A DNA stretch of 32,000 nucleotides from Candidatus Brocadia sp. (GCA_021650915.1 CP091279.1:2010001-2042000); one strand, 5' to 3'. Positions 16,788 to 27,703 are shown, counted from the first letter of the stretch. Notes: a model not told the origin generated them from the sequence alone. Made by a program: numbers and translations.

Positions 16788-17453
16788 GAGAGATTGGAAA
16801 TTAAAGAGAGAAGGGGGTTGATAGAACCGGATAATAAGGAAATAAGTGTACGCCGGCAATGTGAGCTGTTAGGTTTAAATAGGTCGAACGTGTACTATGA
16901 GCCAGTGGGGGTGACAGAAGAGAGACTCCGGCTAATGCATCGAGTAGATGAGATATTTACGGAATATCCCTTTTATGGGAGTCGGCGTATACAAGAGACG
17001 TTAGAACGCGAGGGTATACGGGTAGGTAGGGAACGAGTGCAAAGGTATATGAGGGAGATGGGTTTACGTGCGATATACCCGAAGAGGAGTCTGAGTAAGA
17101 GGCATCCTGGTTACAAGATATACCCCTATCTTCTCAGAGATAAGGAAATTAGTGGTCCGAATGCGGTATGGGTAACGGATATAACATACCTGCGGCTTAA
17201 ACGGGGATTTGTATACCTGACAGCAACAATAGATTGGTATAGCCGTTATGTGGTATCGTGGCGTATAAGCAATACGATGGAAGTGACATTTTGTGTAGAG
17301 GCCTTGGAGGCGGCCTTAGAGAAGGGTAGCCCGGAGATATTTAATAGTGACCAGGGTTCGCAGTTTACGAGCGATGAATTTACGGGAACACTGTTAAGGA
17401 AAAGGATCGCAATCAGTATGGATGGTCGTGGTCGTGCGTTTGATAACATTTTT
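16788..17453 (+). pseudogene. IS3-family orfB (integrase core), C-terminally truncated before the catalytic E
   Basis: The translation reads ERLEIKERRGLIEPDNKEISVRRQCELLGLNRSNVYY...WVTDITYL...FNSDQGSQFTS...DGRGRAFDNIF and then runs into the ISL3 IR at 17454. The tail of ORF 16794..17486 is read-through into ISL3. Confidence 0.8.
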
Positions 17454-17582
17454 AGGTTCTTCTCCCAATTAGTCAATAAGAATTGAGAAGAAATTCCTTT
17501 AAATCAGTGAAAAGAGTGGATATTTGGTGTTTCCTATAGATAGATATATACCGTTCTATAAACTATTTACAGGAGACCAGCA

Positions 17583-23301: not shown

Positions 23302-25419
23302 CTTACAGTTGGACAATTTTTTGCTGGACAAATTAACCAGAATCAAATTGAGGGATACTCGTTGTCAGAGAAACACCTATCAAAATATCAGCAAGCCTGC
23401 GTATTCCCCGCCACATTACTTCCACACCAGGCTCCCTGCCTTTGCCCTTTACAAATCCACCAAGCGGTGCAATAATAAGAATTGCCTCACGCAATGACAA
23501 ACTCTTACCCTTATTTGCAGCATATTCTCCACGGTATTTGATCAGTTTCAAAACTTCTACTTCCTGCTCACTAAAAAGCAAATCACTTGCAACCTCCGGT
23601 GTCTCTCTGCCTAGCATGGTTAAATACATCAACCGCCATGCTGTAATCATATCAATGGTTAAGCACCTCTCCAGCCTATCCAAACTCCCCAGCCTCCGGT
23701 CCTCACTCCTGCGGCCACTCTTTAATATCTTGTGAAACACCTCTATCCGAAATCGTACCGTATACCACTGCACCTTTTCACACGCCTGCTCAAAGTCCCT
23801 GACTTCTCTATTGGTTAACAATTTCCAGTCCAGCCCCTCTTCTCCCTTCGGTGGCGATACCTCTTTCGCTCGTATTGCCCACAGCCTTACCTCCTCTTTC
23901 TCCTTTTTGGGATGCCTTATCCTGACTTCCCGAAACCGTATCTCTAACTCCGCCTCTCTTTCTCTCTTGTCTTTCCCTTTGACAAACACCCTCATCCTAC
24001 CAACAGGCGCCTCTCTGTCCACGACTTCCCATACCTTGGCATCCTCACACACCCTCCTGTTATGAAAAGAGCGCACTAAGAATGAAACCTCCTCGTGGCT
24101 TGCCAGTTCAAACAATTCATAGGTATCCGCTTCCCTATCCCCCACACTCACCCAGTCCACTCCGGACGCCTCTTTCACGGCTCTGGCTGTCGCTTGCAGA
24201 CTCCTTAACCACTTATAACTCTCCTTCTCCTCGATCGGCTTTTGCTTTCTCTTTGCCTTCTTCCCGTGTTCATCAGGGTCTCTTGCCCATGTCTGCGCAT
24301 CTAATACCCCCAAAGGTATCCCGGTCGTGGTAAAGACCACCGTATCGTGCAGAAAATACCCATCCTCCCCTTGCTTCGTTGACAAACACCCTAGTCCCTC
24401 TGTCGCTTCATGGCCAGACAAATTCATGCTCGTCGTATCATTTACCGAAAGGACCACCTTATGCTCTCCGGCCCTCTTGAGGGTCTGCTGTATATGCGCA
24501 TCTAATATATCCGCCGGCTTTACCCCCTCATCCCCAAAAAATCGGTATGCCCCCTTCAACTTCGCCTCCGTGTTACATGCCATGGGTATCGGTGATGCCG
24601 GACTTGCAAAAAAATCCCGCACGATACTCATTACCCTTTTTTTCTTCGCTCGGTTGGCAAGCCTTACCCCCTGAAATTCTTCCTCCACCCAATCCTCGCA
24701 TCCTCTCTCTTGCCTTCCTGCTTCCAATATCCCCTCTTCTAACTCATAGACAAACACATGTTTCCTTGAAAGTCTCTTCTCATGATATCTGTCGTTCCTC
24801 CCTCGCCCTTGCGTCTCCCCCAAATACTCCCAATTCGACGCCTTATAACATGTCCCCTCATAACGCTCCTTCTCCACATAGCTCTCCACCAGGACGGGCA
24901 CCGCCTTATACGCTTCTTCCCAATCACTACGCAGCCTCCTGAGCGCCTTTGACATCACATGCGATGCAAGGTTCTTCACCCGCAACCACGGCACTATCAA
25001 AAATCGACTGTTGCTTACCACTTTCCTTAAACCACTCTTCCTCTCCTCTTCATCCCATCCTAATCGCTCATCTCGCACCTTTACTCGCCATGCCGATGAT
25101 GAAAACGACATCGCCCCTATCCACCCTGCCTCTGAACTCTTTACCAAATATTTTATCTGCTGTCCATACAACTTCGCTGAATGCAAATAATGATGCTCCG
25201 CCAACAGCTCTTTCCAAATACTATAGTTGGGATCATTTTTCCCTCTTACCAATACTAACCCGATCTCTCCCAATTGCCACAGCTCGTACTCCTGGCATCT
25301 CCTTTCGCATGTATATCCCCTATATTCAATTTCTTCGCTCTGGCTTACTTTTGGTATCATGTACCTTAGTATGCCATTTGTACTCCATTTTGTTCAGCAA
25401 AAAATTGTCCAACTGTAAG
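23302..25419 (-). mobile_element. IS4-family (Tn5/IS50-like) insertion sequence, ~2.12 kb
   Basis: It has 25-bp perfect terminal IRs CTTACAGTTGGACAATTTTTTGCTG (23302-26 / 25395-419), extendable to 31 bp with one mismatch. TCAAGAG is present on both sides (23295-301 and 25421-27). The interrupted sequence is contiguous in the paralogous repeat at 27347-27446. Confidence 0.88.
23333..25360 (-). CDS. fusion protein: N-terminal DUF4338 (DruA-like) domain + Tn5-type DDE transposase
   Basis: 675 aa. Residues ~50-215 carry the DUF4338 pattern: LLAEHHYL, IKYLV, SNSRFLIVPWLRV.NLASHV, DWEEAY and VLVESYVEKERYEGTCYKASNWEYLGETQGRGRNDR. Residues ~225-675 are Tn5-like: AYRFF, SVNDTTSMNL (D), VSVGDREADTYELF (D) and YTVRFRIEVFHKILK (Y-2-R-3-E-6-K spacing of the YREK signature). 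Confidence 0.85.
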   Translation of the reverse strand: MIPKVSQSEEIEYRGYTCERRCQEYELWQLGEIGLVLVRGKNDPNYSIWKELLAEHHYLHSAKLYGQQIKYLVKSSEAGWIGAMSFSSSAWRVKVRDERLGWDEEERKSGLRKVVSNSRFLIVPWLRVKNLASHVMSKALRRLRSDWEEAYKAVPVLVESYVEKERYEGTCYKASNWEYLGETQGRGRNDRYHEKRLSRKHVFVYELEEGILEAGRQERGCEDWVEEEFQGVRLANRAKKKRVMSIVRDFFASPASPIPMACNTEAKLKGAYRFFGDEGVKPADILDAHIQQTLKRAGEHKVVLSVNDTTSMNLSGHEATEGLGCLSTKQGEDGYFLHDTVVFTTTGIPLGVLDAQTWARDPDEHGKKAKRKQKPIEEKESYKWLRSLQATARAVKEASGVDWVSVGDREADTYELFELASHEEVSFLVRSFHNRRVCEDAKVWEVVDREAPVGRMRVFVKGKDKREREAELEIRFREVRIRHPKKEKEEVRLWAIRAKEVSPPKGEEGLDWKLLTNREVRDFEQACEKVQWYTVRFRIEVFHKILKSGRRSEDRRLGSLDRLERCLTIDMITAWRLMYLTMLGRETPEVASDLLFSEQEVEVLKLIKYRGEYAANKGKSLSLREAILIIAPLGGFVKGKGREPGVEVMWRGIRRLADILIGVSLTTSIPQFDSG

Positions 25420-25420
25420 A

Positions 25421-25476
25421 TCAAGAGGGGACGAAAGAAGTCCCCGCCCAGGAGGGGATTCAGGGGTGGGTTTAAC
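25421..25476 (+). repeat. E-repeat, right half
   Basis: tcaagaggggacgaaagaagtccccgcccaggaggggattcaggggtgggtttaacc is collinear with 27393-27446. Confidence 0.85.
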
Positions 25477-27116: not shown

Positions 27117-27346
27117 GATGACACGATATCCTGGTTTATGAGACGGTTCGTTCCTTGACTGGGAAAATACGGTATTTTCAACAACAGGTCAAGAGAAATT
27201 TTGGCAGATGCGAAACGAATTACTGCAAACCAGCCGGAGGCATTTTCTCTGTCTTGTGTTTTGAGACATTATCAGTAAAATTATCATAACCTTTTTAGAA
27301 ATTGGTTGCAGACAGTTACATTCCTGCGTTGTCTCTGTTTCCCCCG

Positions 27347-27446
27347 GGAATTTCAAATTTTCTGCTCCTGCCTTACACACCCCCAACCCCTCTCAAGAGG
27401 GGACTAAGAAGTCCACTCCTGGGAGGGGATAAAGGGGTGGGTAACG
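27347..27446 (+). repeat. E-repeat, intact copy (~100 bp, G/C-tract hairpins)
   Basis: It contains the CCCCTC-tcaa-GAGGGG hairpin (27387-27402), followed by ...tccactcctgggaggggataaaggggtgggtaac. It is the uninterrupted equivalent of 23247-23301 + 25421-25476. Confidence 0.85.
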
Positions 27447-27515
27447 TTCTCTCGTATACAAGAAAAGCCGTTAAGTTCTGTAAAAATAAAATAAATCCCA
27501 TAGCACAGCACTGCT

Positions 27516-27703
27516 GCAACCAATTCTCCGTTGTGAAAGCGGGAGATTGCTTCGGATAAGACCCTCGCAATGACACTGGATATGTCTTTGATGACATACA
27601 GTGCGTCGTCATTGCGAACGAAGCAAAGCAATCCTTCTCTTATAAATAAACGGTACCTTCTGATAAGGGGTAAATAAGGTTGCGAAAAAACTTGCAAAAA
27701 AAG
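27516..27703 (+). repeat. R-repeat, intact copy (~190 bp)
   Basis: It is the uninterrupted equivalent of 20676-20772 + 22278-22370. It contains the 10-bp inverted pair tcgcaatgac (27565-74) / gtcattgcga (27608-17). The IS110-family insertion point corresponds to 27612|27613. Confidence 0.85.

Follow-up and report, generated by a model that had tools for sequence, protein, structure and literature searches.

DDE transposases are usually described as DNA-binding domains joined to a catalytic core. Base modification can bear on their use: Dam methylation at the ends of IS10 and IS50 governs when these cut-and-paste DDE transposons move. Elements of the IS50 subgroup of the IS4 family are 1350-1550 bp long, make 8-9-bp target duplications and share an end consensus (De Palmenaer et al., PMC2266710, Table 1). 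Mom of phage Mu is a GNAT enzyme that moves glycine from Gly-tRNAGly to the N6 position of adenine in double-stranded DNA (2026; PMC13219725). R111 and S124 are indispensable to it, and W48, H58, Y59, D149, R151 and Y159 are important (PMC13219725). DUF4338 domains occur in Druantia type I (PMC7251935); in restriction systems that depend on DNA modification, the Aravind group annotated the domain as a GNAT joined to DndF (PMC10853773). Here we describe an insertion sequence (IS) whose Tn5-type transposase is fused to a DUF4338 domain. It lies in a 32,000-nucleotide stretch of a Candidatus Brocadia sp. genome (GCA_021650915.1 CP091279.1:2010001-2042000), which we call the window and which had received a first-pass annotation.

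The domain adopts a GNAT fold, and profile comparisons place Mom as its closest characterised relative. Related domains accompany transposases of six DDE lineages. A literature search that ran without subscription journals or ISfinder found no papers on the fusion or on the biochemistry of DruA. The partnership of GNAT and transposase, its breadth across IS families and the link to Mom appear to be undescribed so far.

A Tn5-type transposase with an N-terminal GNAT-fold domain

The first-pass annotation had proposed a single 675-residue open reading frame (ORF) that combines Tn5 catalytic signatures with an N-terminal DUF4338 region of about 215 residues, and both parts of that proposal are borne out. 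All of the motifs it listed are present in the ORF: HHYL (residues 56-59), KYLV, NSRFLIVPWLRVKNLAS, DW (146-147), GTCYKASNW, GRGRNDR, VNDTTS, GDREAD and YTVRFRIEVFHKILK. The Pfam model PF14236 (DruA, formerly DUF4338) matches residues 36-191 with an E-value of 9e-37 and 127 bits, against a cut-off of 27. The match covers positions 53-225 of the 297 in the profile, which means that this protein lacks the N-terminal portion of the profile. Many homologues of about 745-790 residues (P0077-P0124) do have this portion (PF14236 positions 1-52), as an extra N-terminal region of about 90 residues with the motif ...SRxxLSRxVCxWLxWRxxNGxxKEMSCRVALLKLxRxG... that may resemble a winged helix. It is absent from the window protein and from its relatives of about 680 residues.

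An AlphaFold model of residues 1-222, built with 34 homologues, has a pLDDT score of 82 and a predicted template-modelling (TM) score of 0.79. The order of its secondary structure elements fits the GNAT arrangement beta1-alpha1-(alpha2)-beta2-beta3-beta4-alpha3-beta5-alpha4-beta6-beta7, with two additional helices in the interval between beta-3 and beta-4. A Foldseek comparison with the PDB gave 68 matches at E<=1e-3; all 68 are GNAT acyltransferases, with TM scores up to 0.66. The top structural neighbours are the ordinary N-acetyltransferases SpeG, GCN5, Naa50 and tRNA-bound AtaT. Inspection of the segment between beta-4 and alpha-3 did not find the acetyl-coenzyme A (acetyl-CoA) pyrophosphate loop Q/RxxGxG/A. 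The sequence there is R127-V-K-N130-L-A132-S133, with N130 in the place of a glycine and no conservation at position 127. The conserved putative active-site residues are H57, Y58, R96, D97, R119, S133, D146, E159, Y172, N176, the loop G185-R-G-R-x-D190 and K200.

Residues 223-658 form a complete transposase of the Tn5 type: a domain that binds the ends, a DDE/YREK core and a helix for dimerisation. They align in phmmer to residues 11-458 of the Tn5 transposase (structures 1MUS and 1MUH, E 2e-38). The NCBIfam model transpos_IS4_3 (NF033590) scores 381 bits against a cut-off of 160, and Pfam Dimer_Tnp_Tn5 matches residues 573-664. The full-length AlphaFold model (pLDDT 79.5) matches the Tn5 synaptic-complex structures 4DM0 and 1MM8 in Foldseek with an E-value of 2e-28 and TM scores of 0.78-0.80. 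The Y-(2)-R-(3)-E-(6)-K motif is complete (Y533, R536, E540 and K547), and its residues, like the DDE triad, are invariant in 50 homologues.

Mom of phage Mu is the closest characterised relative of the domain

The Pfam Mom model (PF25680), which has a cut-off of 27.1 bits, scores 24.3 bits on the whole window protein and 27.0 bits on the domain alone. It matches 26 of 34 family members at E<=0.01, with a best E-value of 1.4e-7. When the domain was compared with a 34-sequence Mom alignment in hhalign, 84 columns aligned at an E-value of 7e-4. Hidden Markov model alignments set NSR119F against LNR(111)MW of Mom and NLAS133 against NSES(124), and pair Mom D149 with E163 and Mom Y159 with Y172. 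Mom H58-Y59 corresponds to H57-Y58 by motif position, as judged by eye.

Conservation at these positions was followed in three groups of DUF4338 proteins: those fused to Tn5-type transposases, the 150 best cluster representatives and the IS66-associated proteins. H57, R119, S133, E159 and Y172 are 95-100% conserved in all three groups, and R119 and S133, which correspond to Mom R111 and S124, are conserved at about 100%. Y58 is found in 99-100% of two groups and in 66% of the top-150 representatives. Position 163 is always acidic, with D in about half of the family and E in the remainder. Several of the best viral matches among predicted structures are annotated as 'endonuclease-like' or 'homing endonuclease'; these are probably the jumbo-phage fusions of Mom to restriction endonucleases described by Iyer et al. 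(PMC7824862). On these sequence comparisons, the closest characterised relative of the domain is Mom of phage Mu, and the homology is remote but consistent.

The domain recurs with six lineages of DDE transposases

We searched 1.84 billion cluster representatives exhaustively with a profile and obtained 8,665 DUF4338 clusters, 1,434 of them at E<=1e-30; domain composition was examined in the best 150. Within this set, 55 clusters have a Tn5-like C-terminus, six are N-terminal fusions to the other IS4 group (NF033592, IS4_1), and four are C-terminal fusions to IS66 transposases. An IS630 transposase is the fusion partner in one further cluster, and an IS701 transposase in another. Transposase fusions are far more evident among the 150 than defence-like contexts. 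Two cluster representatives, P0184 and P0249, have DUF4338 fused to MORN repeats and to DUF6788, with no obvious transposase.

An ISAs1-family transposase with an N-terminal DUF4338 domain is encoded on the RefSeq plasmid pTs417 of Candidatus Thiodictyon syntrophicum (locus L092, 3926-5260). The sister plasmid pTs485 (L091, 3986-8758) carries a DUF4338 gene and a Tn5-like gene without the DNA-binding domain, separated by an integrase and an IS91 insertion, and is apparently a disrupted fusion. This region of pTs485, a record from a cultivated lineage, sits within a split DUF2235 gene. All of the fusion partners (IS630, IS701, IS4_1, IS66, ISAs1 and Tn5-like IS4_3) exceed their NCBIfam cut-offs. 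The DUF4338 domain is thus fused to or encoded within six DDE transposase lineages from five IS families, namely Tn5-like IS4, a second IS4 group, IS630, IS701, ISAs1 and IS66.

The domain also occurs as a separate gene. Stand-alone proteins of about 300 residues (the P0216 clade) gave 7,929 matches at E<=1e-10, mostly on contigs of 1-4 kb. In every context examined, the stand-alone gene directly follows an IS66 transposase gene and overlaps its stop codon. The IS66-type elements with DUF4338 are 2.7 kb long, have inverted repeats (IRs) GTAAGTATTTGG... and make 8-bp duplications. The classical IS66 genes tnpA and tnpB were absent from those seen. Such 2.7-kb elements on metagenome contigs (L082-L090) have IRs GTAAGTATTTGGTGATCCCG; L082-L087 have their transposase gene divided between two ORFs.

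A tree of the GNAT domains, which included no bona fide DruA sequence, groups them by transposase family. This pattern indicates partnerships that are old and stable, without frequent swapping. The presence of the domain in six DDE lineages argues for a service to the transposon itself, and strengthens the earlier suggestion that DUF4338 is an accessory of transposition.

The fusion is old, widespread and under purifying selection

A search of 5.8 billion proteins yielded 2,507 homologues of the window protein. Among the 120 homologues listed, nearly all combine DruA and Tnp_DNA_bind in one protein of 675-790 residues. These are spread over Planctomycetota, Omnitrophota, Acidobacteriota, Desulfobacterota, Verrucomicrobiota, Bacteroidota, Proteobacteria and Bacillota. 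When one genome per species was scanned, full-length fusions turned up in Brocadiaceae, Omnitrophota, Desulfamplus, Geobacter, Calditrichota, Acidobacteriota, Nitrospirales, Thiobacillaceae, Burkholderiales, Novosphingobium, Pedobacter, Cloacimonetes and Bacillota. At least five fusion copies are present in a single Verrucomicrobiota genome. Other Brocadiaceae genomes carry copies at different sites with 88-94% DNA identity, and an independent assembly holds exactly the same protein. In a tblastn search of the PLSDB plasmids with the full protein, no fusion was found, only domain-less relatives.

Both halves of the protein are constrained. Among the Brocadiaceae copies, the ratio of nonsynonymous to synonymous substitution rates (dN/dS) lies at 0.19-0.23 in the GNAT domain and at 0.14-0.18 in the transposase. 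Conservation of the GNAT motifs across the 120 homologues equals that of the DDE core. A neighbour-joining tree built on the transposase core puts the fused elements in essentially one clade inside a radiation of domain-less Tn5-like elements, and the domain-less elements L035 and L036 nest inside this clade. A nearly single fused clade with nested domain-less members fits one capture, spread across phyla and occasional loss. The GNAT domain joined the N-terminus of the transposase in an ancestor of these elements.

An ORF of this length might also be an artefact of assembly or annotation, or a two-gene fusion in decay. The only hint in that direction comes from the many truncated homologues in databases, whose contigs break off within the element. 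Against it stand dozens of uninterrupted homologues of 675-790 residues from independent assemblies and phyla, the exact protein in an independent assembly, purifying selection on both halves, and intact IRs and DDE triad. We consider an artefact extremely improbable, and a split gene was rejected on the uninterrupted homologues, the dN/dS values and the independent assembly. The first-pass annotation had held that the fusion moved as one unit. This agrees with the match to both halves, the IRs and duplication of the element, the diverged copies at other sites, the more than 100 full-length homologues in one ORF and the low dN/dS of the extra domain. The observations that it had named as fatal to its reading were looked for and not seen: the N-terminal region has its DUF4338 match, the ORF is no artefact, and more than 100 full-length homologues run on without a stop between the two parts. 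The comparative evidence establishes a fusion that is real, old and under purifying selection.

Boundaries, ends and target site of the element

Coordinates of the features are collected in Table 1.

Table 1. Features of the fused element and its target repeat (window coordinates)
Feature	Position	Strand	Evidence
Complete Tn5-like insertion sequence, 2118 bp, one ORF	23302..25419	-	IRs at both ends, full-length copies of 88-92% DNA identity elsewhere in Brocadiaceae genomes, paralogous empty site
Left IR, ATG-proximal (upstream), 25 bp perfect, 30/31 extended, includes subterminal GCTGAACAA	25389..25419	-	
Right IR, directly past the stop codon, 25 bp perfect plus extension GCTGGACAAA	23302..23332	+	
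Target-site duplication copy CTCAAGAG	23294..23301	.	Flank reading and alignment to paralogous repeat
Target-site duplication copy ATCAAGAG, one mismatch	25420..25427	.	Flank reading and alignment to paralogous repeat
Interrupted dispersed hairpin repeat (target), left half	23247..23293	.	89% identity to 27346-27390
Interrupted dispersed hairpin repeat, right half	25428..25476	.	Alignment of joined flanks
Uninterrupted paralogous repeat copy; local palindrome CCCCTC-TCAA-GAGGGG in a longer hairpin	27346..27446	.	
675-residue GNAT-transposase fusion ORF	23333..25360	-	ORF call, homologues
GNAT-fold DUF4338 domain, residues ~27-207 (Pfam match 36-191)	24740..25282	-	Pfam, AlphaFold model, Foldseek, conservation
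Linker, residues 208-222, poorly conserved, pLDDT <50 at 216-220	24695..24739	-	Full-length model, conservation
Tn5-type N-terminal end-DNA-binding domain (Tnp_DNA_bind), residues 223-279	24524..24694	-	Pfam E 1e-11; IS4_FS_Nterm; aligns to Tn5 from residue 11
DDE core and C-terminal dimerisation region, residues 270-662	23375..24553	-	NF033590, phmmer, Foldseek
Catalytic D308, D408, E540	24437-24439, 24137-24139, 23741-23743	-	

The window has two copies, and no more, of the 25-mer CTTACAGTTGGACAATTTTTTGCTG, one at 23302-23326 on the plus strand and one at 25395-25419 on the minus strand; 100 shuffled windows contained none. The perfect 25-bp IRs that had been claimed for the element are thus confirmed, and in their extended form 30 of 31 bases agree. 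On the plus strand, the IS is flanked by CTCAAGAG on the left and ATCAAGAG on the right. The direct repeat TCAAGAG reported earlier is found on both sides, at 23295-23301 and 25421-25427. Its right copy lies one base away from the IR, so the duplication is better read as 8 bp with one mismatch. Target duplications of relatives are 8-10 bp long, and most are a perfect 9 bp.

The earlier claim of a clean empty site needs amendment. An uninterrupted copy of the interrupted repeat does exist at 27346-27446; it is a paralogue and not an allelic empty site, with 79% identity to the joined flanks, whose junction has 9 extra bases, and it shows what the former target looked like. Its predicted DNA fold has an energy of -23.4 kcal/mol (z = -3.7).

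The ends of the element begin with 5'-CT and, compared by eye, agree with the IS50-subgroup consensus CW------Y---CA-A--W- at 6 of its 7 specified positions. We also considered the ISPepr1 subgroup of IS4, and rejected it on its poorer fit to the end consensus and on the presence of Tn5-specific domains. The element is about 600 bp too long for the IS50 type because of the GNAT domain. A Shine-Dalgarno-like AAGG is read 6 nt before the ATG of the ORF, and a sigma-70 promoter scan of the left end of the element gave no result. Intact and recently active, the element belongs to the Tn5/IS50 lineage (IS4 family), lies in the genome of an anammox bacterium of the Brocadiaceae, and cuts and pastes like Tn5.

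The ends of relatives were located by end-consensus searches. In fused elements (ends of L009-L032), a conserved subterminal motif GCTGGACAC lies at about nt 23-31 of both ends, past a T-rich spacer; in the window it reads GCTGAACAA at 25389-25397 and GCTGGACAA at 23324-23332. The motif is missing in most of the domain-less relatives examined and in the fused Bacillota elements L043 and L046. Its sequence is similar to that of a -35 box, but a second site for protein binding would be just as possible.

Target choice is a property of the transposase clade

Every insertion of the fused Tn5-like family sits centrally in a GC-rich palindrome whose left arm is rich in pyrimidines and whose right arm is rich in purines, as in CCCCTCT[CCCTTTGGG]AGAGGGG. 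Perfect 9-bp duplications flank eight elements from different phyla (L003, L015, L018, L023, L024, L025, L031 and L046). Domain-less Tn5-like relatives of 1.4-1.6 kb from cyanobacteria, Chloroflexi and Proteobacteria use the same type of site, in CCCCTCTCC-N-GGAGAGGGG palindromes, and IS66 elements that encode the domain insert into non-palindromic sites with 8-bp duplications. The palindrome preference is therefore a trait of the transposase clade, which suggests that the target, whether recognised by sequence or by structure, is recognised by the transposase itself. The first-pass annotation had offered a targeting module as an alternative role for the domain; the domain-less relatives at the same sites, and the IS66 elements that carry the domain and go elsewhere, lead us to reject it.

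Insertion at palindrome centres, for example CCCCTCTCC-N5-9-GGAGAGGGG, was seen throughout the NF033590 clade in many phyla, with or without the domain. The loci are the window (23247-23301/25420-25476), L003, L005, L015, L023, L024, L025, L031, L033, L046, L063, L067 and L072-L080. The Thiobacillaceae element L012 (388-2739) is flanked by the 9-nt sequences GGCTTTGCC and GGCAAAGCC, which are reverse complements and not direct repeats, and both fall within a perfect 20-nt palindrome. Recombination between copies in oppositely oriented repeats is one possibility for this arrangement.

Possible functions of the domain

The GNAT fold, the homology, the conservation of the residues and the recurrent association with transposases are established by the comparisons above. 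On this basis we propose, tentatively, that the domain is an active Mom-like acyl- or aminoacyltransferase that acts on nucleic acid near the transpososome to the benefit of the element, a reading that we hold to be plausible without being quite probable. The substrate would most likely be DNA within the transposition complex or close to it. Acetyl-CoA is probably not the donor because the CoA loop Q/RxxGxG/A is replaced as it is in Mom, here by V-K-N-L-A-S, and aminoacyl-tRNA, the donor for Mom, would be the leading candidate. We favour a covalent mark on the ends of the element or on the donor DNA. Such a mark could time the use of the ends, in the manner of Dam methylation for IS10 and IS50, or could protect the element.

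Several points weigh against this proposal. The relationship to Mom is remote: the hhalign probability is 26% for the Mom family and 13% for Mu Mom alone, and a profile search of the PDB sequences with the domain alignment returned nothing. The helix-turn-helix-like insertion of Mom (about residues 175-209), a predicted holder of DNA that Mom activity requires, is gapped here opposite the GRGRxD loop. The extension that longer family members have at the N-terminus is also missing from the window protein. The nesting of L035 and L036 indicates that the domain can apparently be lost, and transposition may not need it. The conserved polar residues could bind a ligand or a base without catalysis, and a Dam-like or protective role would be an analogy. 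No biochemical data on any DUF4338 protein were found in the searchable literature.

Other roles fit part of the evidence. The domain might be a Mom-like modifier that travels as cargo, with a genome-wide anti-restriction, epigenetic or defence-related role, and the in-frame fusion might serve only compact expression. Mom is itself an anti-restriction function of a transposable phage, DUF4338 is found in Druantia type I (PMC7251935) and in DndF fusions, the domain is a separate ORF in IS66 elements, and domain-less relatives transpose into the same type of site. This reading is nonetheless unlikely in our view, since in-frame fusions of passenger to transposase are rare and here arose in at least five lineages, N- or C-terminally, and the GNAT tree follows the transposase family instead of recording free exchange. 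Transposases of ISs are, moreover, made in tiny amounts, a poor fit with modification of a whole genome. A non-catalytic module for DNA binding, targeting or regulation, such as a base-flipping reader of the ends or of palindromic targets, would agree with the position of the domain directly before the end-binding domain, with the extra conserved subterminal GCTGGACAC motif at both ends of fused elements, with the insertion of all elements in GC-rich palindromes, and with the winged-helix-like appearance of the extra N-terminal region in longer members. We find it rather unlikely: domain-less relatives occupy the same CCCCTCTCC-N-GGAGAGGGG palindromes, domain-bearing IS66 elements use non-palindromic sites with 8-bp duplications, the partner transposases have unrelated ends (CT... 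in Tn5-like elements, GTAAG... in IS66), and the counterparts of the essential catalytic residues of Mom, R119 and S133, are near-invariant.

The domain could instead acylate a protein, a small molecule or a charged tRNA and so link transposition to the metabolic state of the cell. It might acetylate the transposase or nucleoid proteins, act as a tRNA-acetylating GNAT toxin does, or resemble an aminoacyl-tRNA protein transferase. Its top PDB neighbours, SpeG, GCN5, Naa50 and tRNA-bound AtaT, point this way, and the fold does not predict the substrates of GNAT enzymes (PMC13219725). However, the canonical acetyl-CoA pyrophosphate loop is not conserved on inspection of the sequence, Mom, the sole relative of known function at the sequence level, acts on DNA, and the DndF and Druantia contexts are DNA-directed systems. 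We regard an activity of this kind as quite improbable.

If the proposed transferase activity is correct, a selected GNAT domain in six transposase lineages would be a new kind of accessory activity, and the protein might be the first transposase that chemically marks DNA. Databases give the large IS family to which the element belongs no label beyond 'IS4 family transposase'.

Relation to Druantia and the surroundings of the element

The earlier description of the domain as DruA-like is correct for the broad Pfam family and goes no further. The PADLOC DruA models match residues 64-115 only of the window protein, with an E-value of 0.0012 and 16 bits, and score 0-25 bits on nine other transposon-linked DUF4338 proteins. 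On PF14236, the transposon-linked proteins score 90-167 bits, so the Pfam model suits them well. No druB-E gene or large DruE helicase is present in the window, where no ORF exceeds 868 residues. The weak PADLOC score and the lack of Druantia genes limit the name to the family level and led us to reject membership in a Druantia system. The Pfam name 'DruA' misleads for most members, which are now labelled 'IS4 family transposase' or 'DUF4338 protein'.

DruA is among the unexplained components of Druantia type I, and the kinship with Mom, the retained catalytic residues and the mostly IS-borne life of the family give a testable idea of its role and origin. In published gene lists, Druantia type II has the methylase DruM where type I has DruA, so DruA may be the DNA-marking arm of type I. 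A wider scheme would follow, which we consider doubtful. DUF4338 proteins would be mainly transposon-borne, Mom-like modifiers of DNA bases, probably with an aminoacyl-tRNA donor. In at least five IS families, transposases would then bring along an activity of their own that marks DNA and so controls or protects their movement. DruA would be a domesticated member of the family that provides Druantia type I with its self-marking arm, as the methylase DruM does in type II.

The neighbours of the element in the window are ISs of the IS3, IS110 and DDE_Tnp_1 types, a metallo-beta-lactamase (MBL) hydrolase, a pentapeptide protein, an ABC-F ATPase and multihaem cytochromes. The region is dense in ISs: an ORF for an IS3-type rve integrase lies at 16794-17486, and a 610-residue DDE_Tnp_1 transposase with an unassigned N-terminus of 224 residues at 18213-20045. 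Repeat segments at 20632-20772 and 22278-22357, 1505 bp apart, are contiguous at 27472-27689, and an IS110-family transposase gene (21128-22138, minus strand) lies in the gap between them. One copy of a dispersed repeat has here received an IS110-type insertion, for which the other copy (27472-27689) serves as the empty site.

Comparison with known systems

Tn5/IS50 shares with this element homology over the full length of its transposase (residues 11-458), the DDE triad, YREK, the end-binding and dimerisation domains, 5'-CT ends and an 8-9-bp duplication. The element differs in its size (2118 bp against 1350-1550 bp in the subgroup, and 675 residues against a typical transposase of about 450-480), in the N-terminal extension of about 220 residues with the GNAT domain, in longer IRs with a second conserved motif, and in the strong preference of its family for the centre of GC-rich palindromes. 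Among IS66 elements with accessory ORFs, DUF4338 is likewise found inside the IRs, overlapping the transposase gene or fused to its C-terminus; there, the transposase is of another family and the domain is downstream or C-terminal.

DruA of Druantia type I belongs to the same Pfam family, PF14236, which is now named after it, whereas the curated DruA models barely match the transposon-linked members and no druB-E genes lie near the element. In the DndFGH restriction modules, the GNAT fused to DndF joins DUF4338 to another DNA-directed machine (PMC10853773), with a different partner protein and a different biological role. The resemblance to Dam control of IS10 and IS50 would be a functional analogy only, in base modification at the ends: the enzyme there belongs to the host and the mark is N6-methyladenine, whereas here the enzyme would be part of the transposase and the mark is putative.

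Mom remains the closest comparison. Both proteins have the GNAT fold, their Pfam and profile matches are borderline, though consistent, and mobile elements of the DDE-transposon type carry both. The motifs in common are W...HY, an (N/S)R in beta-4, an N-x-x-S where alpha-3 starts, an acidic residue that follows beta-5, and Y-x-A-S-N-(W/F), and in both the CoA-loop signature is absent (VKNLAS here, PRNSES in Mom). DUF4338 differs in its two-helix insert between beta-3 and beta-4, with the invariant R96-D97, and in its fusion to a transposase, whereas Mom is a free late protein of the phage.

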